A DNA stretch of 48,677 nt from Mycoavidus cysteinexigens (GCA_031963365.1 JASSUF010000001.1:1-48677); one strand, 5' to 3'. Numbered from the stretch's first letter, positions 5,027 to 47,331 are shown. Notes: generated by a model not told the origin, from the letters alone. Translations and numbers: made by a program.

Positions 5027-5068
5027 GACTTCTCTCCTGATAGTTATGACTTCTTTCGAAACCAAGTA

Positions 5069-5201
5069 GGTAGGTTGGGGTGAGGTACGAACCCCAACAT
5101 GCATACCACTTACCTGTAATCATCGCTTTTGACATGCGTATGCAGGTTTTCAAAGGATAGTGGCGTGCATATTGGGGTTCCTTCGTCACCACCAACCTAC
5201 C
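5069..5201. repeat. Family-2 REP/BIME-like inverted pair, copy inside the prophage
   Basis: Units ggtaggttgg..gaaccccaacatgcataccac (5069-5109) and gtggcgtgcatattggggttccttcgtcaccaccaacctacc (5160-5201) match the units at 39628-39769 and 41450-41557. Confidence 0.8.
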
Positions 5202-5242
5202 ATTTATATTAGTATAATGCTAATAGTATAGTAAAGAGGTTT

Positions 5243-5705: not shown

Positions 5706-6410
5706 CTAACTGGCTTTCTTGATAGTGGTTGAATCTTTGGCTGGTTTCGTGGTCGTTTCATTCTGAAAAAGCAATGGACGCCGCTGGAAAGGCTTAGGTG
5801 CAGCAGTCTTTACGGGTTGGGCTTTTGTGTGCTGCCCTAATACTTCTGCAATCCCTATGAGCTGCTCGATTTGTTCTGATGACAGCTCCTTAATAGCGTG
5901 TAAGAGCCGTTGCTTGGTGGTCGAGGTAGAGGGAATAGCATTTTGCGGCGCAGGAGGTAATGCGCTTTCCTGCCCGGTGACCAACCACCCTTCGTTCACT
6001 CCTAATACCGCAGCGAGTTTTGCGCTTTCTCGGCTGCGCTTATTACGCCCTTGTTCCAAATGTCCAATAGCGGTTTGACTCATGTCTGCTGCGTCTGCAA
6101 GCTCTTGCTGAGATAAGCCGCGTGCCATGCGCGTTGCTTTCAATCGAGAAGCAAAACTCTCTGTATCGGCAGATGCATGCTCTGTAGCAGGATCGGCGGA
6201 CGATACTTCTTTCATGCCTGTGGCTAACCATCTCAGGCTGATGCCTAACGCAGAGGCGATTTCAGGGAATCGCCACCCACTACGTACTTTCCCATTCTCT
6301 ATACGTGCAATGACCTCAGGATCTATGCCTGTTTTTTGGGCAAGTTCTTCCGGCGACCAACCACGGGCCGTGCGAGCTTGCATAAGACGAGAAGCGAAAT
6401 TATTACTCAT
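5706..6410 (-). CDS. Prophage repressor with two tandem XRE-family HTH domains (CI-like)
   Basis: Start at MSNNFASRL. Two HTH_3-like units (FASRLMQARTARGWSPEELAQKTGIDPEVIARIENG and FASRLKATRMARGLSQQELADAADMSQTAIGHLEQG). Divergent from a Cro-like gene. No S24 peptidase motif seen. Confidence 0.8.
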   Translation of the reverse strand: MSNNFASRLMQARTARGWSPEELAQKTGIDPEVIARIENGKVRSGWRFPEIASALGISLRWLATGMKEVSSADPATEHASADTESFASRLKATRMARGLSQQELADAADMSQTAIGHLEQGRNKRSRESAKLAAVLGVNEGWLVTGQESALPPAPQNAIPSTSTTKQRLLHAIKELSSEQIEQLIGIAEVLGQHTKAQPVKTAAPKPFQRRPLLFQNETTTKPAKDSTTIKKAS

Positions 6411-6514
6411 GTAATAAATACTACACGGTATTTGCAAATACTACTAGTAGATTTTTTCTCAGTTAAGCAGTATTGTGCTGATAGTATTATACTATTTAAC
6501 CTACTACACTCACT
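6411..6514. promoter_or_regulatory. Divergent immunity-switch region with repeated operators
   Basis: aaatactaca (6416-6425) and aaatactact (6436-6445) are 20 bp apart. Inverted agtatt half-sites are at 6469-6474 and 6483-6488. The region lies between the divergent repressor and cro-like genes. Confidence 0.6.
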
Positions 6515-13840: not shown

Positions 13841-14692
13841 ATGGTGTGCTTTCCGGTGTCTTTGTCTTTTTGCAATGGCTCTTCTTACCGTTCATTCGAT
13901 TACCCGAAGGAGCGTAAGTATCAGGAGATTTTTTCCAAACAGATTACCGCTGCTACGGGTTTTGAAAAATCTACTTCATTTACCAATCAAACGCGATGTA
14001 AGCCACCCTGCAAACGCAATATGACTAGGCAGTTGCTGGACCAATGGGGCATGGTGCAGCAAGATTTACAAGAAGATGCTTGGTTTCGCCAGTCAGGACT
14101 GGAAACCGCGCAGCAAGATTACCTGGCATGCTTACTCCAGGAATATAAACAAGCATGCGAGGATCTGCAGCCATCCGCAAAGGCCTGCTTATATGTTGAA
14201 GAACAGGATGCGATTTTAGACCGCCTCTGCCATTTAAATGCAGTCATGCAGGAAATAGAAATATTTTTTGAGGACTGTAGCCCTCGGGCCAAAGCACAGC
14301 AATCGGTCTTTTATCTGTCGGTGGCTATTATTGTAGCGGGGGTGTTTTCAGCAGTGATTATCCAAGCGGTGGGAATAGTCTGTACAGCAACGGCGCTGGT
14401 TTCTATTTTGTCGGCGTGTAGTCTAGCCTGTCTGCGGTTGGTGTATGTGCTCTATGAACGCGATATTGCCCACGCACATGCGCAGTGGGAAAGGCGTAGA
14501 AGGCAGTGGAAGACGCTGGAAAAATACTTTGCGCTATTTTGGTGGAAGGAAATAATAAGCGCGCTAGGCAAAGAACAGCTTAAAGGATCCATAAAAGCAA
14601 AACAGCGTGATACTACCATTCGTGCAGTAAGGCGCTATCCTCAAAAAATGCGTTTTACTTGGGTACGGTCTAAAAGAAGGCGGTCTGGATGA
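13841..14692 (+). CDS. Cargo membrane protein with bilobed hydrophobic domain
   Basis: SD gggag before the ATG at 13841. Hydrophobic hairpin VFYLSVAIIVAGVFSAVIIQAV-GIVCTATALVSILSACSLACLRLVYVLY. Basic C-terminus. Interrupts the scaffold-capsid junction. Confidence 0.55.
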   Translation: MVCFPVSLSFCNGSSYRSFDYPKERKYQEIFSKQITAATGFEKSTSFTNQTRCKPPCKRNMTRQLLDQWGMVQQDLQEDAWFRQSGLETAQQDYLACLLQEYKQACEDLQPSAKACLYVEEQDAILDRLCHLNAVMQEIEIFFEDCSPRAKAQQSVFYLSVAIIVAGVFSAVIIQAVGIVCTATALVSILSACSLACLRLVYVLYERDIAHAHAQWERRRRQWKTLEKYFALFWWKEIISALGKEQLKGSIKAKQRDTTIRAVRRYPQKMRFTWVRSKRRRSG

Positions 14693-14741: not shown

Positions 14742-16049
14742 TTATCCATCATCCATTTCTATATCTTGCATAACATATACAGACTCTAAATCTTTATTTC
14801 TGCGCTCCACGTCAGGAAGTGGCTGCGCGCCATTAAAACGGATATCCATAAAATTTATTTTGTGCGAGTATGGAATGGCCGCCATTAAATTATTAACGCC
14901 TACATCACCGATGTTATTATAACAAATATTTAATGAATATATTCCTTTTTCTAATATTTTCAATATGTATTGTATCCCTACATGGCTAATTCTATTGGTG
15001 TATAAATCTAATTTTTGAAAATTTTTATACAAATAGGATCCCTCCATTTTTTCTATGAGAATCATACTTAAACTTTTAACCCCTTCGTCCCCAATATCGT
15101 TTCCTCCAAAGGATAATACTTTAAGACTTATCGGTAAAATTCCTATCAATAGTTTTATATCTTCATCACGGATGCCAACGCCCTCCAATCGCAAATCAGA
15201 AATAGTTGATTGTGTAAAATTGGAAATAAAATCTTTTACCCAACCGGGTTGAATATCTCCAGAAGAACAAAAAGAAGGAGCAGAAAACATAGCGCTTCTA
15301 GTAAATTCAAAACTTGAAATCGTGTTTTTAATTTCAGGTCCAAGAGCTAACAAATTCTGCGCGATAAAATTGCTATATCTTAAAGAAAACTTCGTCTCTC
15401 TTATACTTCTACAGCTCTTAAGAAGCTGTATGATTCTATCAATAATAGAATTTTCAGCGGTATATATAAAACCTGCATCAAAATATAAACTTTCAAGATT
15501 TTGTTTGTTTTCCATCGCTTGTAGTGTTGTAAAAAATCGATGGATATCTACAGCGTGCAAAATAATATTACTATCCTCTATGTCATAATTACCCATCGAA
15601 CTAATCTTGATATGCACATGCTGTATATTTTCAATCACTTTTTCAATGTTATATTTAATTTCCTCCTCGGTTAATGTATTATTATTTCTTGTAATGGCAT
15701 CAATTTTTTCACCACTCCATTTTTCTTGGGCTTGACTCCATATAGATCGCGCGTACGTATCTGTTGTCGCAAGCAAACTACGTATCACTCCGCAGAATGG
15801 AGGGCTTATTAGCATCAATTCGATAAAATCTTTTGGAGTCGATAAAGAGTGCGATAAAAAATCGAATATTTGCAACGCTATTTCATTAGGTAGAGGAGGC
15901 AAAGCTTGGCGACTGTATTTTTCCAAAGAAAATTTTTGAGGTGCAGCCTGTGCTATTTCCTGTGATGGTTGGACTGGATTTTCAGAAGGAATATATTGAG
16001 TAGGGAAACATGGAGTGGAAACACGCGACACATTATTAGAGTTCATCAT
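14742..16049 (-). CDS. F-box + leucine-rich-repeat (RNI-type) eukaryotic-like protein, moron 1
   Basis: F-box motif LPPLPNEIALQIFDFLS...FIELMLISPPFCGVIRSLL. C-terminal LRRs LKVLSFGGNDIGDEGVKSLS, LDLYTNRISHVGIQYI, LNICYNNIGDVGVNNLMAAI. Antisense to the late operon and AT-rich. Confidence 0.8.
   Translation of the reverse strand: MMNSNNVSRVSTPCFPTQYIPSENPVQPSQEIAQAAPQKFSLEKYSRQALPPLPNEIALQIFDFLSHSLSTPKDFIELMLISPPFCGVIRSLLATTDTYARSIWSQAQEKWSGEKIDAITRNNNTLTEEEIKYNIEKVIENIQHVHIKISSMGNYDIEDSNIILHAVDIHRFFTTLQAMENKQNLESLYFDAGFIYTAENSIIDRIIQLLKSCRSIRETKFSLRYSNFIAQNLLALGPEIKNTISSFEFTRSAMFSAPSFCSSGDIQPGWVKDFISNFTQSTISDLRLEGVGIRDEDIKLLIGILPISLKVLSFGGNDIGDEGVKSLSMILIEKMEGSYLYKNFQKLDLYTNRISHVGIQYILKILEKGIYSLNICYNNIGDVGVNNLMAAIPYSHKINFMDIRFNGAQPLPDVERRNKDLESVYVMQDIEMDDG
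15762..15902 (-). other. F-box motif region of moron 1 protein (aa ~50-96)
   Basis: LPxEI..xIFxFL followed by a hydrophobic helix pair, matching the F-box consensus LPdEil..Il..L......l.lVsk.w..l. Confidence 0.7.
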
Positions 16050-17950: not shown

Positions 17951-19243
17951 ATGATGCAAGCTCCCCGCTACGAACGCCGTAAAAACTTTATGCAGGATAA
18001 CGGCGACCAAACGGACCATGTTGCGCTGAATGCTGAGTTTGATGCAGCCTCGCTCTCCATCAATGGCTTACGCCAAAATCTCTCGCAAATACAACGCGAT
18101 GATGGTGCCTTGCAAGATGGGATTGTCGATGCAGATACGGTTTCCAACCGTTTTAAAGAAGAGCTGATTCAACATCTGTCGAAAAACATTGATGGACGCT
18201 TAGAAGAAAGCCGTAAAGCAGCCAAGCAAGCGAATGCTTCTGCGCAGGCGGCACAACAATCTGAGAACCACGCACAACGAAGCGAAACCGCTGCGCACAC
18301 GGCTAGTAAAAAAGCACAAAGCGCCTGTGAGGAATCTCAACACGCTGCTAAAGAGGCTGCGCTCAGTGCCCACGCTACCGAAAATGCGCATGCTGGCGCG
18401 CAAGAAGCAGCCGATAAAGCCGCTCTTGCACAAAAACATGCCTCCTATTCCAGTAAATCTGCCGCTGTGCATGCGCGTCATGCTGCGCAAAGCGCACACG
18501 CAGCACAGCTAGATGCCACCCTTGCCAATCAAGAAGCCGAACGCGCCAGCCAATCTATGCATGCAGCAGCCCATTCTGCAGGCGAAGCGCGGCGCCTAGA
18601 AAAAATCGTACGGCAGAAAGTCGATGAGGCCACACAACTCGGCACACCCGCAGATCATACGGTCAGCACCGATAAATTAGTCCATGGTGCGGTAACTCAA
18701 GATAAATTAGGCGAATGGGCAGTAACAACCGATCACCTACTCGATGAAGCAGTAACCAGCACAAAGCTTGCGGTAGGTGCAGTTGCTGAACATCTGGGCT
18801 ATACGCCTGCCAATATGGAAGATACCTGGACCCGATCCAATTTTGATCCAAACACCAAACTTAATAATACGGGCGATCAAATTCTGGCAGGCCAACTCAT
18901 GCTTGAGTCCTGGTTAGGGCTTCAAGATACTGAAAGCGGTGCAGTGCGCGGCATTTTGCATCGTAACGATGCAGTGGGATTTATAGATCAAGATGGGCAA
19001 TGGAAGCTGCGCATAGAAAAGGATGATGCAATTTGGACAGGCAAATATGGGTATTTGCATACCGCCTTTACACCCAGTAGTGCTATGGCGCTCAACGGCG
19101 TAGGCAGTCTGCAATTGATCAGTTTAACCAATCCGGTTCCTGCTGATGGAGCCATCATTACCGTTCCCAGTCGCCCAGGTTCCTGGCGCATCCTATGTAA
19201 TTCAGGTTGGGGCGCTATACGTTTATTGGTGAGGGTCGCATGA
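17951..19243 (+). CDS. Tail fibre protein
   Basis: SD aaggagg. N-terminal motif HVALNAEFDAASLSINGLRQNLSQIQRDDGALQDGIV is typical of phage tail fibres. Long Ala/Gln/Ser-rich coiled coil. Followed by an assembly chaperone. Confidence 0.65.
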   Translation: MMQAPRYERRKNFMQDNGDQTDHVALNAEFDAASLSINGLRQNLSQIQRDDGALQDGIVDADTVSNRFKEELIQHLSKNIDGRLEESRKAAKQANASAQAAQQSENHAQRSETAAHTASKKAQSACEESQHAAKEAALSAHATENAHAGAQEAADKAALAQKHASYSSKSAAVHARHAAQSAHAAQLDATLANQEAERASQSMHAAAHSAGEARRLEKIVRQKVDEATQLGTPADHTVSTDKLVHGAVTQDKLGEWAVTTDHLLDEAVTSTKLAVGAVAEHLGYTPANMEDTWTRSNFDPNTKLNNTGDQILAGQLMLESWLGLQDTESGAVRGILHRNDAVGFIDQDGQWKLRIEKDDAIWTGKYGYLHTAFTPSSAMALNGVGSLQLISLTNPVPADGAIITVPSRPGSWRILCNSGWGAIRLLVRVA

Positions 19244-19701
19244 GTTACACCATTTATAACCCTCGATGGAGCGATGTAGAGCACACGGCAATTTTGTGTA
19301 CTTTGGTGTCAGACGTGCATGACGAGATCAATTTCCAGGCGATGCCAACAGATCCTGAGCTACTGGGCCGCACGATCTACGAAGAATGTGTAGCGGGTAA
19401 ATATGGTGCTATTGCACCGTATTTACCCGACCCTCAAGCACTGTTGAATGTCATCGAAGCACAACGTGATGCGGGTTTACGCCATGCAGAAATAGCCACT
19501 CGAGGGCTGAATGATGCTTTTGTAGCCGGTATTTTGGATACCGATCAAGCAAGCCGCTTTCGGGAATGGGCTAGCTATCAGCTCGCTTTGAGGACACTAG
19601 AACAGCAAGCTGGCTTTCCTGAGCAGATTGAGTGGCCCACTGCACCAGCGCCTATTTTTACAGCCACATTACCTTTCATAGAGCCTGCGAATGACACCTG
19701 A
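19240..19701 (+). CDS. Tail fibre assembly chaperone (Tfa-like)
   Basis: ATGA overlap with the fibre gene. C-terminal WASYQLALRTLEQQAGFPEQIEWPTAP resembles the Caudovirales tail fibre assembly protein signature. Confidence 0.6.
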   Translation: MSYTIYNPRWSDVEHTAILCTLVSDVHDEINFQAMPTDPELLGRTIYEECVAGKYGAIAPYLPDPQALLNVIEAQRDAGLRHAEIATRGLNDAFVAGILDTDQASRFREWASYQLALRTLEQQAGFPEQIEWPTAPAPIFTATLPFIEPANDT

Positions 19702-19981
19702 CACAGAAAGCAAATCGCTTATTGAATTGGCCCTTATAGGAGCATTGATTGCACTGGGCAAACTGCTCGCCGGAGGCGAAAAGCTCACGCTGCGCTTGTG
19801 TGCGGGGCGGGTGATTATCGGAGCCGCCTTGAGTATGGTAGCTGGAGCTGCACTCGCCATGATCCCAGATCTCTCTGTAACGGCGCTGATCGGCTTAGGT
19901 TCTGCTTTAGGCATATGTGGACAATCGGTACTTGAAGCTGGGGTACAGCGTTGGATAACCAGCTCTGATGGCAAGCACTAA
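19691..19981 (+). CDS. Three-TM small membrane protein, putative holin
   Basis: 96 aa with three hydrophobic segments (LIELALIGALIALGKLLAGG, VIIGAALSMVAGAALAMI, ALIGLGSALGICGQSVL) and a charged C-terminus. Overlaps both neighbours. Confidence 0.45.
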   Translation: MTPDTESKSLIELALIGALIALGKLLAGGEKLTLRLCAGRVIIGAALSMVAGAALAMIPDLSVTALIGLGSALGICGQSVLEAGVQRWITSSDGKH

Positions 19982-22005: not shown

Positions 22006-23169
22006 TTAGTCCCACAAAAACTCAATGTCTGCGCCATGCTTATTTTTTATACCAGAAAATTTATGGCGTTCATTGTCTAAATGGCAGCCAGATAAACGCA
22101 CTGTCTCTAATGTTAAAAAATTTGATATAGCTCTTAAATCATCAGCTTTATAGCCAGACAAATGATTACCGGTTAAGTCTAGATATTGAACATCTATGTT
22201 CTGCAACTTTTTAAAAATATTTTTTGCGCCATTACGGTCAATATTATTACAGCTTAATGATATGGTTTTTAGCTTTTCTGGCAGATTTTCAATTAGATGT
22301 AATGCCTCTCCATTTGCAAGACCAGCAAAATCTGCTGAGAACTCTTTAATATTGATATTTTTTAAATACTTTGAAAATGCATTTAACGCGGGTCTTTTAT
22401 TTTTATCTAAGCCTAAACTAAAAGAATCAATATTTTTACCTGATAATAATTGCAACAAAGTTGGAATATATTTTATGTCAAACTCATCACTGTCCACACA
22501 GAAGAATGGAATACTGCTCAATTCTGAATTTTTATGTAACACCCATAAAAAGTTGGATGTGAATTTATATTTATCATAATTGCATTCGCTAGACAAAGGC
22601 AAGTCCAATGTTTTTATATTGGTTTTTTTTAGCAAAGCATGAAATACCATATCCATTAGTTTATTACACTGATTCACAGTGGATGAGAAAAAAACAAAAT
22701 CGAAGCAAATATGCTGTACTTTATTAATAATAAAGTCAATGCCAAAATTGGTTTGATTATATGAGAATTCGGTTTTTTGTGTAATTCTAGAAGTCGCTCT
22801 TTCACACCAATCCATTTGATACTCAGGGCTTTGCGAGTCTATATCCGCGCTATCAACCAATAACTTTTCGAATTCAGAAAAAAATATCCTATGCTTAACT
22901 TTTATTGCCTCAAAAAATAATTCTTTATTAACCAACATAAGCACAGATAATTGCTGCATAGACTCTTTTGGTGAATATAATTTTGGAATGACATTTAAAA
23001 TCATGCTTACTAATTCTGTTGGCAAATCAGAAAAGGTAGCAGAAGGAGAAACCCTATTCTGGGAAGCGCTATCGTTTTCCAAGCATAGATCTTTAGAATG
23101 TATTTCATTGCCCTTGGAGTATGTAATATAAGAACGTTCTTGCAATTTATTTACATCTGATACATTCAC
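22006..23169 (-). CDS. F-box + LRR eukaryotic-like protein, moron 2
   Basis: GTG start with SD gaggaaat. F-box FSDLPTELVSMILNVIP...LSVLMLVNKELFFEAIK. C-terminal LRRs LKTISLSCNNIDRNGAKNIFKKL, YLDLTGNHLSG, LETVRLSGCHL. Antisense to the late operon and very AT-rich. Confidence 0.78.
   Translation of the reverse strand: MNVSDVNKLQERSYITYSKGNEIHSKDLCLENDSASQNRVSPSATFSDLPTELVSMILNVIPKLYSPKESMQQLSVLMLVNKELFFEAIKVKHRIFFSEFEKLLVDSADIDSQSPEYQMDWCERATSRITQKTEFSYNQTNFGIDFIINKVQHICFDFVFFSSTVNQCNKLMDMVFHALLKKTNIKTLDLPLSSECNYDKYKFTSNFLWVLHKNSELSSIPFFCVDSDEFDIKYIPTLLQLLSGKNIDSFSLGLDKNKRPALNAFSKYLKNINIKEFSADFAGLANGEALHLIENLPEKLKTISLSCNNIDRNGAKNIFKKLQNIDVQYLDLTGNHLSGYKADDLRAISNFLTLETVRLSGCHLDNERHKFSGIKNKHGADIEFLWD
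22894..23034 (-). other. F-box motif region of moron 2 protein (aa ~46-92)
   Basis: LPtELv.mIL followed by L.vLmLVnKelf..i, matching the F-box consensus. Confidence 0.65.
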
Positions 23170-28197: not shown

Positions 28198-28629
28198 ATG
28201 ATGGAGATCTTGAATTATCCCCGCTTAAGGGAAGAGCTCATACGTGATGAAGGGGTTCGATTTAAGCCTTACCGCGATAGTAGAGGGTATCTCACGATCG
28301 GCACAGGCCGTAATCTGGATGCGATCGGTATCAGTCAGCAGGAAAACGATCTAATGCTCGATAACGATATTCAGCGCGCCGCGCATGATTTAGATCAGCA
28401 TTGCCCGTGGTGGCGCACACTGGATGCGGTACGGCAGCGTATCTTAATGAACTTGTGTTTTAATTTGGGTATTGCCAAACTATTGCAATTTACTCAAACC
28501 CTGCATGCTACCCAGCAAGGCGCTTATCCACAAGCTGCCATACATATGCTGGATTCTGCATGGGCGCGGCAAGTGAAAGAACGAGCATTACGGCTAGCAC
28601 ATGGCATGCGCTCTGGAGTCCTAGGATGA
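28198..28629 (+). CDS. Endolysin, T4-lysozyme-like (GH24)
   Basis: LIRDEGVRFKPYRDSRGYLTIGTGRNL catalytic-region motif (E...D...T). 143 aa. Confidence 0.88.
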   Translation: MMEILNYPRLREELIRDEGVRFKPYRDSRGYLTIGTGRNLDAIGISQQENDLMLDNDIQRAAHDLDQHCPWWRTLDAVRQRILMNLCFNLGIAKLLQFTQTLHATQQGAYPQAAIHMLDSAWARQVKERALRLAHGMRSGVLG

Positions 28630-29135
28630 TAAGTGCACTATGGCGTTGGTTTAGTGGTTCACGCCTGGTAGGGGCTATGCTAGTAGGCATCGCTATAGGG
28701 GGATATACCGCTTGGCATATACAAGCCCTTCGTTACGAGGTGCGATTAGCCCGTCTACAAGCTAACATGCTTCACGCCCACCAAATACAAGATGACATTG
28801 CCACACACACAGAAACCACAACCCATGCCAATCTTAGCGCCATTGAAGATCAAGCACGCCGCCTCACCAGCCAGATTCCACGCTATATGGATTCAGACGA
28901 TACTCTGGCTCAGTCTGTGCCTCCTAGCTTCGTGTACCTGTACAACGCCGCTTTCACCGGCGCTACTCCCTCCACCTCCACACGCGCTGATGATCGATCC
29001 TCCCGCATTTCGTTTACTGAACTTGCCGATGCCCACATCACCAACGCCAGCATCTGTCAACAATGGCGAGAACAGGCATTAGCTTGGAGAACATTTTATC
29101 AACAGTTGCGTGACGCTCAAGAGGTGAGACGCTGA
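28626..29135 (+). CDS. i-spanin (Rz-like)
   Basis: ATGA overlap with the lysozyme. N-terminal TM LVGAMLVGIAIGGYTAW, then coiled coil. Contains an embedded +1 frame lipoprotein ORF. Confidence 0.7.
   Translation: MISALWRWFSGSRLVGAMLVGIAIGGYTAWHIQALRYEVRLARLQANMLHAHQIQDDIATHTETTTHANLSAIEDQARRLTSQIPRYMDSDDTLAQSVPPSFVYLYNAAFTGATPSTSTRADDRSSRISFTELADAHITNASICQQWREQALAWRTFYQQLRDAQEVRR
28825..29082 (+). CDS. o-spanin (Rz1-like lipoprotein) embedded in Rz +1 frame
   Basis: Lipobox LLAS|C (Cys codon at 28933). Mature part is Pro-rich (PLSPALLPPPPHALMIDPP). Lies entirely within the Rz gene. Start uncertain (28792 or 28825). Confidence 0.6.
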   Translation: MPILAPLKIKHAASPARFHAIWIQTILWLSLCLLASCTCTTPLSPALLPPPPHALMIDPPAFRLLNLPMPTSPTPASVNNGENRH

Positions 29136-29223: not shown

Positions 29224-30432
29224 TTAGGCCAGAGCATGTACATTTGCAGCTACGTAAGAGGACTCACTTGAATCCGTATAGCCGGATGCAGACATGTCAC
29301 TATCCCCTTCTGTAGACGAAGAGCCATGCTCGTCCAATGTGGGCATTACAAGAGCATTTTCCACAGGAGGCTGGGGAAGAGGAAGAGAAAGCGATTGTGA
29401 AGGGTCAAAATCTTGGTGTAGCGGCAACGTTGGATTCATCGGCACCCTATCTATAGAGTTCGTTAGAGAAGTGGACTGAGTACCTGCCTGAAGGAGTGCG
29501 GTATCGCTGCCATTTTCCTGATGACGGTTACTTTGACTGGTAACCTGGCTACTGCTATGACCTTGCTCAAGAGCATGTAATCGTTCAGAGAATGCATTAA
29601 GTTGAGCAAGCAAATTTTGGTTTATTAACTGCTGCTGTTGATTTGTTTGCCTTAATTCTGCAATTATTTCTCCACTTTGCTTGACTTCTATTCTTAATTG
29701 CGCATTAAGGCTCTTCAATTGTTTAACTTCATTTTCTAATTGTTTATTTTGATTTCTTAATTTTGTATTTGCATTTGTATTTCTTAATCGCGTATTTTTG
29801 TTTTGTAATATTCCGTGAGGCTCTTCTGAAGTTTTGATGCGATTATTTAATTTCGCTACTAACATCTCACTTCCAGCAGCAGTATTGGATGCGGTTTCAC
29901 TGACTACGGTTTGGGTTACGCTTCCCACCCCTGTTTGCGGTACTTCAAAAGGTGCAAGTGCAGTTTCTTCGATTTCAAGGCGGTATGGCATTTCGCTGCT
30001 TGGAACAGATAGAGTACTGTTGTTTTGATTTGCTGGTTCTATATCAGCATTTCCTTCGCCAATACTCACTGTTGGGGCAATAATAGCGCTAGCTGCTGTC
30101 GTATTGGATTCAGTAACATGGGCCGCAATGGCACCAATAGGAGGCGAGGTTTCTGGTCTTTGACGAGGTAAGGGTGCAGTTTGTTTGGCTTCAAATTTTT
30201 CTGACGCCATCGGGTTTGAGGTGAATGTTTTTTTACTATTCTGGTCTTCTATTGGGAGTTGTGCTATATAGGCAACGCTGGATCCACCAAGAAGGGTCGC
30301 GGCAACAGCAGCGCCGCCCGCTATCGTAGTGCTTGATCCAGAACCCGCAGCTGTGATAGCGGCGGCGGCCGAGGCGCTTCCCATTTGTGATAACACAGCA
30401 AATGCACCAATTCCAGCAAGAGGTAATGGCAT
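29224..30432 (-). CDS. Cargo protein: N-terminal Ala/Gly-rich double hydrophobic segment + Gln/Asn-rich coiled coil + Ser/Asp/Glu-rich tail
   Basis: SD ggag. LAGIGAFAVLSQMGSASAAAAITAAG and IAGGAAVAATLLGGSSVAYIA. Heptad region LRNQNKQLENEVKQLKSLNAQLRIEVKQ...LLAQLNAFSERLHALEQ. Confidence 0.6.
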   Translation of the reverse strand: MPLPLAGIGAFAVLSQMGSASAAAAITAAGSGSSTTIAGGAAVAATLLGGSSVAYIAQLPIEDQNSKKTFTSNPMASEKFEAKQTAPLPRQRPETSPPIGAIAAHVTESNTTAASAIIAPTVSIGEGNADIEPANQNNSTLSVPSSEMPYRLEIEETALAPFEVPQTGVGSVTQTVVSETASNTAAGSEMLVAKLNNRIKTSEEPHGILQNKNTRLRNTNANTKLRNQNKQLENEVKQLKSLNAQLRIEVKQSGEIIAELRQTNQQQQLINQNLLAQLNAFSERLHALEQGHSSSQVTSQSNRHQENGSDTALLQAGTQSTSLTNSIDRVPMNPTLPLHQDFDPSQSLSLPLPQPPVENALVMPTLDEHGSSSTEGDSDMSASGYTDSSESSYVAANVHALA

Positions 30433-30820
30433 AGATCACTCCAGTGAGTACGTGTTTATGAAATACTTTTCAGCTTTGCGTCGCTTTTAAGTTTTACAGA
30501 AAACCTCATTGGCTAGAACTACATCTGCATATGCTGCTTGGAATAGCATGTACCTAATAAAATAATGGCCAAGACAAAAAATATTAATACAGTGATCTAG
30601 CAGGGATAGGTTTAATCAATCTCTACTGCTTATCAGCGCAATGACGGATACCCAATAGAAGAAAAAATATCCAAAGTATTCAGATAAAGGTATTGCTCCT
30701 ACATCTACCTCGTTTGCAGGCGATAAAAGCGACTCCTGCGCAATACCATAAAGTTAAAAAACGATAAGCAGTATCCGGCCAAGACCTGTTAATAACCAGC
30801 TGGCTTTGTGGACCCAAACT

Positions 30821-32467
30821 ATGGACCGTATCACGCCTATTCCTTCTCCAACACTTCCTGCAACCGCAGCTAAACCCATCGCCTGCGAAGATGCCCTATG
30901 GGTTCCGCTCCCTGAGCAAGATGTAATAGAGCGCAATAGCCTTATTGCTATCGAAGCATGGCAAAAGCTATTTACTGATTTGCCGCTTGAAATAGTGTCA
31001 ATAATTTTTACAGAAACATTATTTGGTCTAACGCTCAATGAAATATTGAATATTGCAGAATATCAAAGAGGGAAACTCAAACCTGAGGCTTGGTCCGCAC
31101 TCTATAAAGCTAGTATTTTTTGTTTTGGCTCAATAGAAGAGCTATCAGAGTGGCTCTCTAATCCTAAACAGTTTCGGAATTTTGTCGAAGATGCGCAAAA
31201 ATACGGAGATAAAACCCTGCGGCAAATCTTTTATGGATTACAACTGCTGGAAAAAACAAAAGACTCGATAACCATTGAAGATTGTATGCGTGCTGGAATG
31301 ATAGATAGAGAGCGTATCTGTTCAGAAAATGCATTACCAAGTATTAGGGGCGAGCAAGATTTTTTATCGTGGCTCTGTGGAAAAAAAGCGCGTATAGTAA
31401 TTTGTTTACGTTGGCTTCCTGCGCAAACCCACAATCCTGAAGCTCGTAATCCTGATTTACTAGAAGAAGCAGTAAAACAAGGTAATTGCACGATAGTAAA
31501 GCAAGTATGCGCCTATATGAAAAAGCATAGGCTGCATGATGGGGCTGTCCTTCACCCATGTCGAAATGCATTATGGAGAGCGGTTATTGATAATGATGTC
31601 CCAATAGCACAATATTTATTCGACGAATTTCCAGATTTTCGGTTCACTCAAGGTCTTCTACAAATTTCTGCAGCAGAAGGATGTTTGCCTATGGTTCAAC
31701 TGCTTATAGAAAGAAAAATAGAAATTAATGAACTAGATGACTATCAAAAAACGGCCTTGCAGACAGTAATAGGTACCTTCTATCCATATCAGCTTTCTCC
31801 TTCATATTGGTTAGGATTTGATGAGGAGGGGCGTCAAAAAACCCTCGATCAATTAGATGTGATTATTTTTTTACTGCGTCAATATGTTGATAAAGGACTT
31901 GATTTTGATATTAACTGGGAATTGCAAGAACAAAATACTTTTTTGCATATGGCTTGTTATGTGCAAAACCCTGACTCTGCAGAATGGTTAGCACAGTTTA
32001 TATTGGAACAGCAAAAGGATAAAAACCTGTTCGATACTCAAAATGAAGATGGGAAAACGCCTTTCATGTGTGCATTAGAGGCTGATAATTACCCTATGTA
32101 TACTTTTTTGCAAGAACAGCAGGCGAAGCGAGTGTTAGGAACCGAGAGATTTCCCCTTCTTTCTCGAGAAGAGTTTCAAGCTTTACGAACAGCGTCGAAT
32201 AGAACATCCTCAACGCCACCTTCCACAAAGCCCGTCTTGCCTGCTTCCACTAGTATTCAAAACGACCCTCCTGTTGCTGTTCAGCCTCGCATTACAGCTT
32301 CCTATGCACCTTCTGCGCAAGAGATCTCTTGGCTACACACATGGGTGCAAGCCTTTGTTGATTTATCAAAATATCTGCTCACGATGGTGTTCTTTATTCC
32401 CCGTACTTTGTATGTCTTCTACCTCAATGTCATACAAGCTTGGATAAGTAGAGTGAGTGAAAGGTAA
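30821..32467 (+). CDS. F-box + ankyrin-repeat protein with C-terminal hydrophobic anchor
   Basis: F-box LFTDLPLEIVSIIFTE. ANK-like units (LLEEAVKQGNCTIVKQVC, ALWRAVIDNDVPIAQYL, LLQISAAEGCLPMVQLLIERKIEINELDDYQKTAL, NEDGKTPFMCALEADNYPMYTFL). C-terminal YLLTMVFFIPRTLYVFYLNVIQAWI. Confidence 0.75.
   Translation: MDRITPIPSPTLPATAAKPIACEDALWVPLPEQDVIERNSLIAIEAWQKLFTDLPLEIVSIIFTETLFGLTLNEILNIAEYQRGKLKPEAWSALYKASIFCFGSIEELSEWLSNPKQFRNFVEDAQKYGDKTLRQIFYGLQLLEKTKDSITIEDCMRAGMIDRERICSENALPSIRGEQDFLSWLCGKKARIVICLRWLPAQTHNPEARNPDLLEEAVKQGNCTIVKQVCAYMKKHRLHDGAVLHPCRNALWRAVIDNDVPIAQYLFDEFPDFRFTQGLLQISAAEGCLPMVQLLIERKIEINELDDYQKTALQTVIGTFYPYQLSPSYWLGFDEEGRQKTLDQLDVIIFLLRQYVDKGLDFDINWELQEQNTFLHMACYVQNPDSAEWLAQFILEQQKDKNLFDTQNEDGKTPFMCALEADNYPMYTFLQEQQAKRVLGTERFPLLSREEFQALRTASNRTSSTPPSTKPVLPASTSIQNDPPVAVQPRITASYAPSAQEISWLHTWVQAFVDLSKYLLTMVFFIPRTLYVFYLNVIQAWISRVSER
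30968..31105 (+). other. F-box motif region of the ANK protein (aa ~50-95)
   Basis: LPlEIvsiIF then LtLnEILniae. Weaker second half than in the two LRR proteins. Confidence 0.55.
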
Positions 32468-32544
32468 ACTCAACCATTGCGCAATATAGAAAGTGCAGCT
32501 AACCCAAAGAGAATAATGTTTTTATCTTTATAAATAAATATTTA

Positions 32545-32584
32545 CGAAAAAATAGCCCTTCTTCAAAAAAGAGCTATTTTTAGA
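32545..32584. terminator. Putative bidirectional terminator between convergent cargo genes
   Basis: aatagc (32551-32556) pairs with gctatt (32573-32578), plus inner tctt/aaga. A-run upstream and T-run downstream. Confidence 0.4.
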
Positions 32585-32631
32585 GGACATTAATTTACTT
32601 TTAGATTTATTGTACGGGAGAGAGAGGGGGA

Positions 32632-34074
32632 TTACCCTAATTTATTTATTAATTTTGCTATTAACTCATCTTTCTGAGCCAGTTGTTCTTTTAGTCGTGC
32701 ATTTTCCGCTATCAAATCAGCATCTGGGCTAGAAGAGGCAGAACGAGAGACGAGAAGTTGTTTGACTTCGTCCAGCTCTTTCTGCAATTGAGCAGCGCCA
32801 TTATTGAAGGCAGTAAAAATGTGATCTTGTTGCGCACCAATGGCCGACTTAATATCTTTAACTTGATCAGTGCTCATTTTTAATACACCTTTACCTTTTA
32901 ATACTTTGAGTAATGCGGGGAGAATCTTATCCCTTAATTGTATACGAATAAGATTCTCCTTTCCAAATTGTTCGTTTTTTTGTATCTCTCTAACAGGAGT
33001 GAAGGCTGAAGGGAGGTTGAGGAAGGCGACAATGTTTCCTCCTACCAAAGGAATAAAAGCAATAAGTGTTTTAAGCGTAGCAAACCAAGCGGCGAAAGTC
33101 GTCCATTTCTTGCGAGCTTCGTCTTCTTGCTTTTGGATAGTATCGAAGTACGCAGCTTGTGCTTGAGCCAATTTATCAAATGGCAGCCATAACTGATCAG
33201 TAGAAAGCCATACAGATTCCGTAGATTCTTCTAAAGAGTTAGAACTTGCCCCACTCTCGATGATAGAAGGGGTTATCAAACGGCCATTATGGTCCTCAGA
33301 GGGTAAAATTTCACTTATTTTACGAGGAAGGCGCACTCCTTGAGAAGGATGTAACAATAGCTCTGGGTATCGCCATAAAGAAGAAAGCGTCTCTTGGATT
33401 TCAATACGAGTACGATGTATAAGTGAAGCATCTGCGCAGAGCTGCTGCATAGATACATTACGCTGACCTTCATTTCTATTTGCAAGGATATGCTCTGTAA
33501 AGAGAGCATCTAACGAATCTTTGGCTTCTTCTAATGCTTTTTTGGCCGATTGACCGTAATTATTTAATGCATCGCTACCTGGTTTGATAAGCGCCATGCC
33601 CATCTGCGACGCAGATTGCGCTTTTGTCGCAGGCTTTTTATGGCCAAGGAGCCAATAGGCATGAGCACGTGATTTACTCAGTGATCCATCTGGTTCAAGC
33701 TGCGCAATACGGGTATCGATCTGCTGACTAGTTAAAGAATACAGCGTTTTTTCATACGCTGTTTTAGCCTTAGCCGCTTTATTTGAGCGATACTCTTCCA
33801 TATGACGTCTAGAAGAATGTAATAGCGCATTCTGCGCTTTCAGGGCTTTGAGAGACCTTTCTATTTGACTAGGGACAAAAGAACAAAATGGCTCACAGAG
33901 ATGCGCTAATGAAGTAGTAGGAATATGTTTGCCAAATAGTGGATGCCCTTTCTCAAATACGGGTAAATTTTCTTGGAATTCTGGAGGATCTTGTAGCGTG
34001 AGCTCAACACAGGCGGCCTGCGAGGAAAAGATCGCATGATCTATGGGTATTCCACCTGCGCCAGTAATTCGCAT
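32632..34074 (-). CDS. Cargo protein: large helical protein with internal hydrophobic hairpin and C-terminal coiled coil
   Basis: SD aggag, 480 aa. FAAWFATLKTLIAFIPLVGGNIVAFLNLPSAF. C-terminal LIAENARLKEQLAQKDELIAKLINKL. Confidence 0.6.
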   Translation of the reverse strand: MRITGAGGIPIDHAIFSSQAACVELTLQDPPEFQENLPVFEKGHPLFGKHIPTTSLAHLCEPFCSFVPSQIERSLKALKAQNALLHSSRRHMEEYRSNKAAKAKTAYEKTLYSLTSQQIDTRIAQLEPDGSLSKSRAHAYWLLGHKKPATKAQSASQMGMALIKPGSDALNNYGQSAKKALEEAKDSLDALFTEHILANRNEGQRNVSMQQLCADASLIHRTRIEIQETLSSLWRYPELLLHPSQGVRLPRKISEILPSEDHNGRLITPSIIESGASSNSLEESTESVWLSTDQLWLPFDKLAQAQAAYFDTIQKQEDEARKKWTTFAAWFATLKTLIAFIPLVGGNIVAFLNLPSAFTPVREIQKNEQFGKENLIRIQLRDKILPALLKVLKGKGVLKMSTDQVKDIKSAIGAQQDHIFTAFNNGAAQLQKELDEVKQLLVSRSASSSPDADLIAENARLKEQLAQKDELIAKLINKLG

Positions 34075-34221
34075 ACGTTCTCCTAATAAAGCACCTCCTC
34101 GGAGATACTATGATTAAGCATATGGAAGATTTTTTTCAGCAGGTATACGGCTAATACCTGGAAGATAAGATTTGGCAAAACGCTGAATACGCTTTAGTTT
34201 GGTAACAAAATACGATGCAAA

Positions 34222-34261
34222 AAGTCCCACATCCTCAAAAAAACTGAAAACATGGGACTTT
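34222..34261 (-). terminator. Possible terminator after the 321-aa cargo gene
   Basis: On the minus strand agtccca pairs with tgggact (long loop), followed by ttttg. Confidence 0.35.
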
Positions 34262-34286
34262 GGCGATCTAAAAAAAGCCATGTTAA

Positions 34287-35252
34287 TTAGGCTAGATCCT
34301 CAATAGATTTAAGCACTATTCGAGCCTGCTCTAAAGGGATGCCTGATTTGGTGAGAGCTTGCTTTAAAATCTCCTTGGAAACGTAATCAGCATGGTTAGC
34401 AGACTGCACTTGTTGGGCTGCCTTGACTTCCGCTAGCTCACGCTGCATGTTTTGCATTATTCGATTCATATTTTCAATTTTGTTATTAACACTCATATTG
34501 TTTCTCAACGATTCTTCTAATTGGGCTACAAATTGATTAAAAAGATTTTTGTGTTTATTAAGGTGAATACGCCGCTCACCTTCTATCTGCGCAATTAAAA
34601 ATCGATAAAACTGCACATATACCGAGATAAACACAAAGCATTTCCCAAACAGAGCCGCCATGCTTGCTGAAATCGCCAATGCGATACACAGTTGCGCGCA
34701 AAGCGGTGCAATAAGGGGCATTAAAATCAAGGTTGCTGTAAACAAAAATACAAAACGACTAGTTTTTTGTTCCTCCGATTCAACCTTAAATTCCTCGTAG
34801 CACTTGGCAAATTTCAGCATGACTTTATGCAAACACGCTAAATTGGCTTCAATTTGGCTGCTTTCTTCAGGTGATAAAGCAATTTCCTCCGTAGTTACTA
34901 ATCCATCAGGCAAGGGAGGCATCTCTGATTGAATGCTGATGCCTTTTTCTACCCACTGCATAAGCGGCTGACAGGCTTTAGCGAAGTTAGAAAGCACGGC
35001 TGCGAACTTGGCCTCCTCCACTTCTGATAAACCTCGGCCGCAATACCAGTTATCTTCCTTCAATACAGTCTTTATGCACGTCCATTGCTCTGAAACTTGT
35101 TCATACAAACTGCACTCTGGTTCGATAATTTCTGGATCGATAAAGCCGCATTCAGATTGGCTTTTACTTTCAGTAACAGCGGGGCTGGGAAAAAAAGGAA
35201 TGTTGAATGTTGAGATGCCTCTTGCCTGCAAAGTGTGCAGGAAGGAAGACAT
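34287..35252 (-). CDS. Cargo protein with central bilobed hydrophobic domain and C-terminal coiled coil
   Basis: SD gggagg. FVFLFTATLILMPLIAPLCAQL-CIALAISASMAALFGKCFVFISVYV, then LEESLRNNMSVNNKIENMNRIMQNMQRELAEVKAAQ. Confidence 0.6.
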   Translation of the reverse strand: MSSFLHTLQARGISTFNIPFFPSPAVTESKSQSECGFIDPEIIEPECSLYEQVSEQWTCIKTVLKEDNWYCGRGLSEVEEAKFAAVLSNFAKACQPLMQWVEKGISIQSEMPPLPDGLVTTEEIALSPEESSQIEANLACLHKVMLKFAKCYEEFKVESEEQKTSRFVFLFTATLILMPLIAPLCAQLCIALAISASMAALFGKCFVFISVYVQFYRFLIAQIEGERRIHLNKHKNLFNQFVAQLEESLRNNMSVNNKIENMNRIMQNMQRELAEVKAAQQVQSANHADYVSKEILKQALTKSGIPLEQARIVLKSIEDLA

Positions 35253-35648
35253 AGCATTTCCTCCCTAGCGCAGTGCAGATAAATAAGGGCTGATATAACA
35301 ACCCCGCCAGAGGGTTATCAAACAGGAAAGCAACGGGTGACTTCGAGAGACAGAAAGCCGGGAAGAAGTTGTTAAACGTCTATAAGCTTTGAGATACGGG
35401 GGATAAATAAAGGAACAGAAACCCATTGGAGGGTCTGGATACGAGCGTAGGTAGTACATTGCAACTCCTAGAGGAGAGTTTCAATTCCCTACCAACCTTC
35501 GCTATCAACCAAAGGGTGGCAGGACCGAGCGAGGTTGATAGACCGGCCTCTAGACCAGTGAGCCGTACGGCTCCCACACTCGGCCCCACCATAAACGGGA
35601 CTGACATAGAGGAACGGAGCTATCAACCTCCGGCTACCTTTTGGTAGC
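35253..35648 (-). ncRNA. Long structured 5' leader (or independent RNA) upstream of the 321-aa cargo gene, class unknown
   Basis: ~396 nt with no convincing ORF between a near-consensus promoter and the gene's SD. Several long-range perfect complementarities (see findings). Confidence 0.4.
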
Positions 35649-35654
35649 GCATTG

Positions 35655-35683
35655 ACTATTACAAATTTATAAGATTTTGTCAA
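35655..35683 (-). promoter_or_regulatory. Sigma70-type promoter (minus strand)
   Basis: On the minus strand: TTGACA (35683-35678), 17-nt spacer, AATAGT (35660-35655). Confidence 0.5.
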
Positions 35684-35991
35684 ACACAATAAAAAAAGGG
35701 GCAATTTCGATGTTTGCACACCATCACACTGCCTAGGAATCGAGGAACATAAGCAGTTTTGAAACGCTGAAAACGGAGGGTACTCCGATAGAAATGCTTA
35801 GCGTAAATTTACCCCGCTTTTTCATGTGGCTAGGCTAACCTTGTTTACTAAAGTAGGTATGAGAAGTAAAAAAACTGCTAGACTAGATGTAACGGCAGCC
35901 TCTACTGCTTTTTATAAGGTCGCCACTGTATATTTGCTGTGAAACAAATTTTAAAAGTAATAATGGCAACATTCTTGTAGCAAATTTTTTT

Positions 35992-36012
35992 GGGGGTATA
36001 TTTGGGGGTATA
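35992..36012. promoter_or_regulatory. Putative integrase arm-type repeats, attR side
   Basis: gggggtata at 35992-36000 and 36004-36012 (12-bp phasing). Same motif as the attL-side cluster. Confidence 0.45.
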
Positions 36013-36074
36013 AATTATACTCACTGAAGAATGAGCCCTTTATTTATATGAATTTCGTCTTTAAATGTGTATCT

Positions 36075-36090
36075 TCTTCCGGGTACCAAA
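36075..36090. repeat. attR core (tRNA-Leu 3' fragment)
   Basis: Exact copy of 2185-2200. Confidence 0.85.
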
Positions 36091-36198: not shown

Positions 36199-36338
36199 GA
36201 ACCTGTTTAGAGTCTCCCAAAAGGGCCCATCTTCGGGGTCGTGCGGTGCAAGGTATTCACTGTACTTAAAGTACATCCGGATCCTGCGCTCCTGCTCCCC
36301 CAAATATGAACCCTTTTGGAAGACTCTAAACAGGTTCT
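36199..36338. repeat. Family-1 MITE-like repeat, inverted copy with different outer arms
   Basis: The core 36227-36310 is the reverse complement of the 47170-47262 core. Outer 28-bp arms are agaacctgtttagagtctcccaaaaggg / cccttttggaagactctaaacaggttct. Confidence 0.8.
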
Positions 36339-39527: not shown

Positions 39528-39627
39528 AAAGCGCTCTCAGAAAATTAATGCAGCATATGACAGAGCAAAGAGGATTACTTGTTAACCTTTGTCTTTAAGA
39601 ATTTGTAAGCTGGTCATAAAGAACGCG

Positions 39628-39769
39628 GTGGCCTGCATGTTGGGGTTCGTGCTTAACCCCAACCTACCGTGCTTTGCTTTTCTTGTGGTGGGTAGAGTTT
39701 GATAGAACCCTTTTATATGTGCATCTCGGTAGGTTGGTGGTGACGAAGGAACCCCAACATGCATACCAC
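39628..39769. repeat. Family-2 REP/BIME-like inverted pair
   Basis: gtggcctgcatgttggggttcgtgcttaaccccaacctacc ... ggtaggttggtggtgacgaaggaaccccaacatgcataccac. Each unit contains a GTTGGGGTT/AACCCCAAC-type hairpin. Confidence 0.8.
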
Positions 39770-39878
39770 TGTCTTTTTGAATACCTGCGTAACATGAGTT
39801 ATTAAGGCTATAAAACGCTGCAATACGCTTATTTTTACGCCCATCAATATATCTTTACGACCTTTTATATAGCCATTC

Positions 39879-41429: not shown

Positions 41430-41449
41430 AAAGCAAAAACTAGAGGGCG

Positions 41450-41557
41450 GTGGCGTGCATGTTTTGATTCGTGCCTCACCACCAACCTACCCCTATCGCA
41501 AAGATATGAGGTCTCTCATAGGTTGGGAGGATATTGGAATCCAAATATGCAAACCAC
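41450..41557. repeat. Family-2 repeat, degenerate pair
   Basis: gtggcgtgcatgttttgattcgtgcctcaccaccaacctacc plus a diverged inverted unit ggttgggaggatattggaatccaaatatgcaaaccac. Confidence 0.65.
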
Positions 41558-41628: not shown

Positions 41629-42201
41629 TTACGCCAAATTAGAGACCTGTGCAGGTACTAAATTTGGGAATAATTTTGAAAGCAAATTCATAATAAATTG
41701 ATACAAACGTTCCAAAAACGTAGGTCCAGATGTTCCAGTATCTGCAGCACCTTTTAGAACAGCATCCGTAGCATTTTCTAGAACATTATGAATAGATTCT
41801 AGCTGCAAGATATCGCTGTTTTCTTCTTGTGCATATATCGCTGTTTCTTGGCTTGCTTGCGACACGGCAAAACTATCTATTGGTTGATTTTTCCAGTACA
41901 CTATTTCCTGGTTTTTTACTTTAATCTCCTCTTTTAAAAAAGCTGACTGTACGCTTAATGCAGCAATTTTTACGTTATTTTTATCAGATTTTGGATCTGA
42001 TCTTAATCGTGATATTTCTTTTTCTACTTTTTGAAGCTTTTTCTTCAAATTTTCAAGGTCACCCTGAAGGGTTTTTACTATCCTATTTCTTTCATTATTG
42101 GATAATAATATATCTACTTTACCTGAAGAAGATGTATTTAAATTAGGTTGCTGAACATTTTTAGAAAATAATTTTTGAATGGGCGCCATTGAAACTTTCA
42201 T
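41629..42201 (-). CDS. Coiled-coil hypothetical protein in an AT-rich islet
   Basis: Start at MKVSM with SD gaggaaat. Heptad-rich LQGDLENLKKKLQKVEKEISRL. No recognisable enzymatic motif. Confidence 0.5.
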   Translation of the reverse strand: MKVSMAPIQKLFSKNVQQPNLNTSSSGKVDILLSNNERNRIVKTLQGDLENLKKKLQKVEKEISRLRSDPKSDKNNVKIAALSVQSAFLKEEIKVKNQEIVYWKNQPIDSFAVSQASQETAIYAQEENSDILQLESIHNVLENATDAVLKGAADTGTSGPTFLERLYQFIMNLLSKLFPNLVPAQVSNLA

Positions 42202-42646
42202 ATTTCCTCGCATTTTTATTAATTAAAATGAATCGGATTATTTTTTATAATCCTTTTTCTGCGGCTTCATGTATGAATTGGAATATACGCCTCAGTCACA
42301 CCATGACTCCGCAGCACCAAACTTAATTAATAATAGCCCAACAAAAATAATTTTCCATTCTATATTTTCTGCAATCTGGAAAAGAAAAAATACTTAACCC
42401 ATCACAGAATAAGTATATTTTCCTATACCTCAGATAGCCTATCTAAGGTTTTTCATACTTCTAATATAGAAATATTGTATGCGCAGCGACCATTCCAGCA
42501 CTTTATTACATAATAATATTCACATTCTTCAAAGGCCTCGGACTATCCTTGAACAGATGAAACGGATAATCCAATATATACACTGCTTCTAGGATGACGG
42601 GCGTAGAGCGAACCTTCTGATTTATAAAATGTACCCTATTACTTTA

Positions 42647-47144: not shown

Positions 47145-47289
47145 TAGGGCGTGTCCTCAATTGTCCCAAAGGGTTCATATTTGGGGAAGCAGGAGCGCAG
47201 GGACCGGAGCTGTACTTTTGTACAGTGAGGATCCCGAGCACCGCACGACCTCAAAGATGGGCCCTTTGGGGCGATTGAGGACATGCCCT
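47145..47289. repeat. Family-1 MITE-like repeat, complete copy nested in a REP-like palindrome
   Basis: Outer arms tagggcgtgtcctcaattg / cgattgaggacatgcccta. Inner termini cccaaaggg / ccctttggg. Central hairpin ctgtac-tttt-gtacag. Confidence 0.85.
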
Positions 47290-47331
47290 AAGAACCCGGA
47301 TGTTAGACTTCTTGTTAAAAGGAGAATAGAT

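Follow-up and report, generated by a model that had tools for sequence, protein, structure and literature searches.

A C4 RNA-headed accessory cassette on a prophage of Mycoavidus cysteinexigens and its possible orientation towards the fungal host

The island and its C4 RNA leader

The right end of a prophage in Mycoavidus cysteinexigens carries an island of four genes, at positions 29224-35252 of a 48,677 nt stretch of DNA (GCA_031963365.1 JASSUF010000001.1:1-48677) that was analysed as a whole and is referred to here as the window. The island is very probably one mobile accessory ('moron') cassette of approximately 6.5 kb, headed by a functional C4-type antisense RNA. Its four open reading frames (ORFs) have the orientations - + - - given in an original prediction made from this DNA: 29224-30432 (-), 30806/30821-32467 (+), 32632-34074 (-) and 34287-35252 (-). 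The plus strand gene encodes an ankyrin-repeat (ANK) protein and the products of the other three are, in the same order, p402, p480 and p321. As had been described, the island directly follows the lysis genes, namely lysozyme (28198-28629) and an Rz-like spanin (28560-29135), and Shine-Dalgarno (SD) sequences are present before the genes for p402 (GGAG), p480 (AGGAG) and p321 (GGGAGG), with none before the ANK gene. The p480 gene lies after that for p321 on the same strand. It is convergent with the ANK gene, and between the two is a bidirectional terminator-like hairpin (32549-32583; A-tract, stem AAAAAAUAGC..GCUAUUUUU, U-tract), which was read from the sequence, has its stem in both the minimum free energy (MFE) and centroid folds and was not flagged by the consensus scan.

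The genes of the island are cargo and not part of the phage core, as was originally proposed. None of the proteins has a match in PHROGs or, by tblastn, in 50,697 phage genomes, and these searches assign them to no known phage function. The GC content of third codon positions is 0.32-0.42 in the island genes; for terL, portal and lysozyme of the phage it is 0.47-0.51.

A full length C4-type antisense RNA (Rfam RF01695) is present on the minus strand at 35512-35596. It covers model positions 1-87 with 59.7 bits (gathering score 45; E 1e-10 to 4e-9), and MFE folds agree with the C4 structure. Approximately 60 nt upstream, at 35655-35683 (-), is a sigma-70-like promoter, TTGACA-17-(TG)AATAGT, which at 10/12 with an extended -10 is the best promoter-like site in the region. 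The leader that follows the RNA contains its target sites (35467-35510, minus strand). Directly downstream of C4, GGUUGAUAG (35510-35502) can pair with the junction CUAUCAACC of the RNA. The loop of C4, UCUAGAGG, is matched by CCUCUAGG (35474-35467), and this second site overlaps the GGAG SD of a leader ORF of 64 codons (35265-35459, minus strand) that ends 13 nt before the p321 start. This ORF has the position of icd in phage P1, where the downstream ant genes of immI are controlled by C4 and by icd, itself a short ORF (PMC8201110, citing Citron & Schuster 1990 and Riedel et al. 1993). No match to the C4 leader was found among phage sequences by blastn, nor to the conserved promoter in IMG/VR.

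A second copy of the cassette in a P2-like prophage

Two instances of the cassette are available, the one in the window and one in an unrelated P2-like prophage at a locus (L003) of a Mycoavidus metagenome-assembled genome (MAG; GCA_031963225.1). The sole homolog of p402, P0005, is located there between the tail-completion genes gpR/gpS and the baseplate genes gpV/W/J, and its neighbourhood has the same gene order and orientation as the island. The promoter (35683-35655 in the window, within 4523-4556 in L003) is identical at 32/34 nt (94%). The C4 RNA (35596-35512 and 4619-4705) scores 68.8 bits in L003, and the leader region is 75% identical. The leader ORF has 48 codons in L003 and differs by an in-frame indel, the N-termini being similar (MYYLRSYPDPP.. 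in the window and MFHLHSYPSPP.. in L003). The ANK proteins, encoded on the opposite strand, are both of 548 aa and share 67% amino acid and 78% DNA identity, and the last proteins, of 402 aa and 486 aa (P0005), are 37% identical over 312 aa. There is no detectable similarity between the first proteins (321 and 323 aa) or between the second (480 and 544 aa). The 323 and 544 aa proteins nevertheless mirror the architecture of their counterparts, with a hydrophobic stretch about two thirds of the way along that is followed by a C-terminal coiled coil. Because the 321/323 and 480/544 aa pairs are dissimilar, the case for a conserved cassette rests on the C4 RNA, the leader, the ANK protein, p402 and this shared architecture. 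No convincing flanking repeats were found that would explain the mobility of the cassette.

The loop and junction of the L003 C4 RNA differ from those in the window and the targets are altered in step, so that GUUCCUUAAGUG pairs with CACUUAAGGAGC over the SD. The second pairing is also retained despite the changes, as CUUCUAA with UUAGAAG. These duplexes, one over the SD of the leader and the other immediately 3' of C4, measure 8-9 nt in the window and 7-12 nt in L003. Since the changes in loop and target compensate between the two copies, an antisense interaction between C4 and the leader is supported. The sequence just 3' of C4 could also pair with the 3' strand of the stem that closes C4 (window 35487-35498, L003 4716-4728). 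This complementarity is conserved, at 8-11 nt in the window and 13 nt in L003, and hints at another structure of the precursor or at a signal for its processing.

By analogy with the c4-icd-ant arrangement of P1 immI, the C4 RNA would block translation of the leader ORF, and expression of the downstream 321/480 operon would be low or conditional, with relief on infection or induction. If C4 acts as it does in P1, then the operon would be repressed in lysogens, which suggests expression once a phage infects or is induced.

In its C4 RNA, the target that covers the SD and the short ORF ahead of larger genes, the island follows the arrangement of P1 c4-icd-ant (PMC8201110). The island could on this basis be a P1-like immunity module in which the 321 and 480 aa proteins are antirepressor analogues driving the lysis-lysogeny switch. 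This is very improbable, however, as p321 and p480 contain no Ant, KilA-C, Bro-type, DNA-binding or repressor-binding domain, and membrane hairpins such as that of p321 would be unexpected in antirepressors. The downstream genes are, moreover, non-homologous between the two cassettes, one of which lies among the tail genes of a P2-like phage.

The cassette proteins and their relatives

The p321 protein (34287-35252, minus strand) has an N-terminal helical domain, a bilobed hydrophobic hairpin of 57 aa (residues 167-223) and a C-terminal heptad-rich helix. A distant paralog, p283 (13841-14692, plus strand), has the same N-terminal domain and a bilobed hairpin but no coiled coil; the homology is seen by blastp (E 1e-6 to 1e-8) and hhalign (93.7%). 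The gene for p283 is a moron in the head-gene region that adjoins a leucine-rich repeat (LRR)/F-box-like gene, and its ortholog, P0006, is a moron in the sister prophage. Transmembrane (TM) and coiled-coil propensities were assessed with home-made measures, and the insertion energies are rough values on the Hessa scale, without position weighting. The p321 hairpin has a maximum Kyte-Doolittle hydropathy (KD19) of 2.34 and two segments of about 0.3 and 0.6 kcal/mol, and is kept in two relatives (P0002 and P0007). In p283, the hairpin comprises 47 uncharged residues with a KD19 maximum of 2.66 and segments of about -1.7 and 0.1 kcal/mol, and is kept in P0006. When all ORFs of the window were scanned for hydrophobic stretches of 45 aa, only p283, p321 and a host major facilitator superfamily (MFS) transporter stood out among the non-spurious ORFs. 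Both proteins are predicted to be helical-hairpin membrane proteins, with their two large domains on one face of the membrane.

The p480 protein (32632-34074, minus strand) is an orphan, without homologs among 5.8 billion clustered proteins. It has a single marginal hydrophobic stretch (326-361, with a central GG) and a C-terminal coiled-coil-like tail; the hydrophobic residues extend over 26-33 aa around the GG, with a KD19 maximum of 1.91 and no segment below 3 kcal/mol. The p402 protein (29224-30432, minus strand) begins with an uncharged Ala/Gly/Ser tract, continues with a middle part rich in Ser and Thr and a leucine zipper rich in Asn, Gln and Lys (approximately residues 223-290), and ends in an acidic, Ser-rich tail. 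The N-terminus has 61 uncharged Ala/Gly/Ser-rich residues with a KD19 maximum of 1.45, no predicted TM segment and no segment below 3 kcal/mol, and its hydrophobicity is not kept in the homolog (0.77). A bilobed hydrophobic domain of 40-55 aa had been ascribed to all three of these island proteins and to the 13841-14692 protein, which is true of p321 and p283 and does not hold for p480 and p402. The heptad or coiled-coil character ascribed to p321, p480 and p402 is seen in a crude heptad score of 10.6-11.5 for the three, with 8.1 for p283 and 6.4-8.3 for four control proteins. The Ser/Asp/Glu-rich tail reported for the 402 aa protein is also present, and it is kept in P0005.

A search of 5.8 billion clustered proteins found one homolog of p402, P0005. 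The L003 protein has a different N-terminal half, which contains a tandem duplication of about 33 aa. Residues 1-61 of p402 have no charged residue, Ser makes up 12% of the first 50 and Leu/Pro are found at positions 3-4, which fits the heuristic rules for Hrp-type type III secretion system (T3SS) export signals. An assignment of p402 as a bZIP protein was rejected; only the zipper part matches bZIP_1, below threshold, and the spacing of the basic region is wrong and not kept in the homolog.

The ANK protein (30821-32467, plus strand; Ank_2 4.6e-14, Ank_4 7.5e-13) probably starts at the ATG at 30821, giving 548 aa, because this is the length of its 67% identical ortholog. It has a conserved C-terminal hydrophobic tail, YLLTMVFFIPRTLYVFYLNVI, and may be a membrane-tethered adaptor that is possibly F-box-like. 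The gene had been labelled as encoding an F-box, a label that is not secured, as there is no Pfam F-box match even at E<=10 and the N-terminus has only an F-box-like motif, LPLEIVSIIF. A profile made from seven LPxE[IL] N-termini has as its best PDB match the start of the yeast Cdc4 F-box, a weak hit (E 0.085), and the LRR moron product p435 is F-box-like at E 0.0036, below the Pfam cut-off. The same N-terminal LPxE[IL] F-box-like motif is found in two LRR morons of very low GC content (0.31-0.34) within the structural genes, at 14742-16049 (-) and 22006-23169 (-). In the sister prophage (L006), both slots are taken by genes of this type at 11006-12253 (-) and 18271-19284 (-), which are only 21-25% identical although the backbone is 91% identical, and these look like hypervariable effector-type slots.

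In the 5.8 billion clustered proteins, p321 has one homolog, and with a profile of its family 11 of 1.84 billion representatives are matched at E<=0.001. The family is tiny and specific to the lineage, with p321 as its founding member. The contexts of its members vary: besides the moron P0006, there is a solo chromosomal gene among housekeeping genes (P0007), a gene that adjoins a HEAT-like repeat protein (P0002) and one that adjoins another ANK protein with an F-box-like N-terminus (P0011). The HEAT-like protein (L001 3-2492, plus strand, in a Mycoavidus MAG) lies just upstream of P0002 and has at least 829 aa and about 20 repeats (LDALIALTKDSDREVKRRAAEALGKQSSLP). At the loci of solo family members there is no C4 RNA. 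Exact-sequence look-ups of p321 and of the protein P0012 gave no record.

Pfam, PHROGs, PADLOC and NCBIfam identify no family for p321, p480 or p402, and these three with seven family members have no Pfam or NCBIfam match, IncA included. There is also no match to the three in PDB sequences, nor to the ANK and p321-family profiles in JGI metagenomes and IMG/VR; a 576 aa late protein of the prophage likewise has none in IMG/VR. That the proteins lack defence domains, as had been observed, agrees with 0 PADLOC matches among eight cargo proteins.

The hairpins of p321 and p283 are as hydrophobic as ordinary inner-membrane helices, and the proteins may therefore instead belong to the bacterial envelope. 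In a fuller form of this alternative, the proteins with hairpins and coiled coils would stay in the inner membrane and work for the phage in superinfection exclusion, abortive infection or the control of lysis or cell division, the C4 RNA would restrain them because they are toxic and the ANK gene would be an unrelated neighbouring moron. The basic residues on both flanks of the hairpins, the position of the island beside the lysis cassette and the hypothetical nature of any secretion signal favour this, as does P1, in which C4 gates the cell-division inhibitor Icd (PMC8201110). It is considered the main alternative, but a rather unlikely one. The phage already encodes its holin, endolysin and spanin elsewhere and the proteins have no PHROG, PADLOC or phage-genome match. 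Members of the family also occur as solo chromosomal genes among housekeeping genes and beside ANK and LRR genes in other contexts, and the family is confined to the endosymbiont lineage despite broad phage searches.

The ratio of nonsynonymous to synonymous substitution rates (dN/dS) was determined between the window and its Mycoavidus MAG homologs. It is 0.04-0.16 for the phage backbone, 0.43 for p283, 0.36 for the ANK gene and approximately 0.64 for p402, with the p283 value coming from the same phage pair as the backbone at similar dS. By this measure the cargo genes evolve 3-10x faster than the backbone. Being above the backbone yet less than 1, the ratios show that the cargo is fast-evolving and still constrained. 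The orphan sequences and low-complexity composition, in a host whose genome is undergoing reduction (PMC5877345), might otherwise be read as decaying or non-functional ORFs of a degenerating prophage. Such decay is extremely improbable given the long intact ORFs with SD motifs, dN/dS below 1 in every gene that has a homolog, the conservation of the regulatory RNA with compensatory changes, and an ANK ortholog of equal length at 67% identity.

Prophage setting, host and likeness to known systems

The window is a chromosomal segment that carries a complete-looking prophage. To its left are a gene for a thiamine pyrophosphate (TPP) enzyme and tRNA-Leu(cag) (2114-2198), after which comes a tyrosine integrase (2362-3684). 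A CI-like repressor (5706-6437), DUF1376/DUF6475 genes, the large terminase, a portal that is 25% identical to a Microcystis phage portal, a holin (19691-19981) and an SU10-type adaptor follow, and the host genes pcnB, folK, panB, ilvA, radA and alr form the right flank. The attL core TCTTCCGGGTACCAAA (2185-2200) is at the 3' end of the tRNA, and an exact 16 nt copy at 36075-36090 (+) is the attR core. These are the only two exact copies in the window, where 0.19 chance matches would be expected allowing <=3 mismatches, and the terminator hairpin after the attR core resembles that after the tRNA copy. The exact core at both ends places the prophage at approximately 2185 to 36090, and the island sits within these att boundaries. 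Repeats of the GGGGGTAT(A) type adjoin both att sites (2330-2360 and 35990-36016), and TTGGGGGTATATTTGGGGGTATAAATT near attR, with an inverted copy near attL, is a candidate arm-type integrase binding site.

The DNA of the prophage backbone is approximately 91% identical to contig 34 of GCA_031963225.1, a Mycoavidus cysteinexigens MAG (isolate BRE-AD058) that contains the sister prophage; the comparison covers this contig (JASSUD010000034) up to its last 6.5 kb, which hold the right end of the prophage. An interspersed repeat is also common to the window and this MAG. It is intergenic, of 50-130 bp and similar to miniature inverted-repeat transposable elements or repetitive extragenic palindromic sequences, with copies at 5068-5204, 39606-39788 and 41433-41512, also at about 36210-36330 and 47161-47290, and many at L001, and it gives rise to spurious ORFs that share the peptide HIWGSRSAG...KMGP.GRL. 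One copy adjoins the gene for a coiled-coil-rich orphan of 194 aa (41629-42213, minus strand) with no Pfam match, which is outside the prophage in a low-GC islet between ilvA and radA and is a candidate for a further lineage-specific gene of host interaction.

An intracellular, endofungal Mycoavidus-like bacterium is supported as the host. Mycoavidus is an endohyphal symbiont of Mortierella, with 7-11.5% prophage DNA and genes for type II, type III and type IV secretion systems (PMC5877345), and Burkholderiaceae-related endobacteria are often observed inside host vacuoles (PMC6307997).

Taken as a whole, the island is plausibly, on an even balance of the evidence, a portable, RNA-gated and fungus-directed effector-like cassette carried by prophages of Mycoavidus-type endofungal Burkholderiaceae. 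An orientation of its proteins towards the fungus is held with about the same or slightly lower confidence. It is suggested by their lineage restriction, the ANK, LRR and F-box-like neighbours, the fast evolution, the absence of any phage or defence assignment and the biology of the host; the products would then act on the fungus and not in the phage cycle. Once secreted, p321 and p283 might sit in the membrane of a host vacuole or other organelle in the manner of the Inc proteins of chlamydiae. Insertion of this kind into a host-derived membrane, which would concern one protein family and not three island proteins, is judged unlikely from the analogy. A further step is doubtful: that the cassette is silent in the lysogen and switched on by infection or induction, coupling the lytic or transfer cycle to remodelling of fungal vacuole or organelle membranes.

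Several observations weigh against a fungus-directed cassette. The match in hydrophobicity between the p321 and p283 hairpins and the helices of the host MFS transporter would favour retention in the inner membrane, and p480 and p402 are without convincing TM segments. The N-terminus of the ANK protein is not recognised as an F-box by Pfam. The AlphaFold2 models of this N-terminus (from a single sequence) and of p321 (from a three-sequence alignment) are too poor to use, with predicted local distance difference test (pLDDT) scores of 46.4 and 40.5. There are two cassette instances only, and the 323 and 544 aa proteins of L003 have no significant similarity to p321, p480 or the p321-family profile. 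If repression by C4 is P1-like, the operon would be largely off in lysogens, which is awkward for a constitutive symbiosis effector. Secretion and a host target are themselves hypothetical.

Hardly anything is known of the effectors that Mycoavidus and related Burkholderiaceae endosymbionts use in early-diverging fungi, and no literature was found on host-directed cargo of the abundant prophages in these bacteria. A defined cassette would, if the proposal is true, offer concrete effector candidates together with a testable regulatory switch, and could reveal how phages spread host-interaction genes in an endofungal symbiosis.

The original description of the island proteins as Inc-like applies to architecture, and to the 321 aa family only. 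In p321 and p283 there is a bilobed hydrophobic domain of 47-57 aa with a short loop, as in chlamydial Inc proteins such as IncA, and in p321 a coiled-coil-like helix adjoins the hairpin. The island proteins have no sequence similarity to Inc families, however, and the hairpin is in the middle of p321 and p283, not near the N-terminus, so the likeness is one of architecture alone. In neither p480 nor p402 is there a hairpin of this kind, in which two TM segments, each of about 20 aa, and the short loop between them span 40-60 aa.

Legionella AnkB and GogB of the Salmonella prophage Gifsy-1 are comparable to the ANK protein, which combines an N-terminal LPxEI motif, repeats and a C-terminal membrane-anchoring element, and the phage also holds the two LRR genes with the same motif. 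Both are F-box-type effectors, and GogB is phage-encoded and thus prophage-borne like the island genes (PMC3386239, PMC2790608). In contrast to these effectors, an F-box is not detected in the ANK protein at Pfam thresholds, and its anchor is a hydrophobic tail and not a CaaX box.

With the immI region of P1/P7 (c4 - icd - ant1/2), the island shares an Rfam C4 RNA with a promoter immediately upstream, and two C4 elements that can pair within their own transcript, where one of the target sites covers the SD of a short ORF ahead of larger genes. In the island, unlike immI, 13 nt lie between the leader ORF and the next gene, and the downstream genes encode membrane-hairpin and coiled-coil orphans rather than antirepressors. 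The module also behaves as mobile cargo, with one phage carrying it at its att end and the other in its tail cluster. A defined cassette of this type would extend the use of C4-type RNAs beyond antirepressor control.

The eukaryotic association module (EAM) of the Wolbachia prophage WO is reportedly a block of non-phage genes rich in ANK proteins and in further repeat proteins of eukaryotic type, of which some carry TM segments. The island resembles it as a non-phage block at the prophage end, by the lysis and late genes and att, in an intracellular bacterium, with repeat proteins and fast evolution. Eukaryote-like-domain genes are found beside late genes and att, with the ANK repeats above Pfam thresholds and a Mycoavidus-like host. 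The host here is a betaproteobacterial endofungal symbiont and not Wolbachia, however, and the island has only generic ANK repeats, without latrotoxin-CTD, PRANC, OTU or NACHT domains. No literature was found linking the EAM to endofungal bacteria. A defined cassette would extend the EAM idea, so far tied to phage WO. That an RNA-switched module of this kind is the fungal-symbiont counterpart of the EAM is a speculative and improbable proposal. The island also differs from the EAM in being a discrete C4-headed cassette common to two unrelated phage types.

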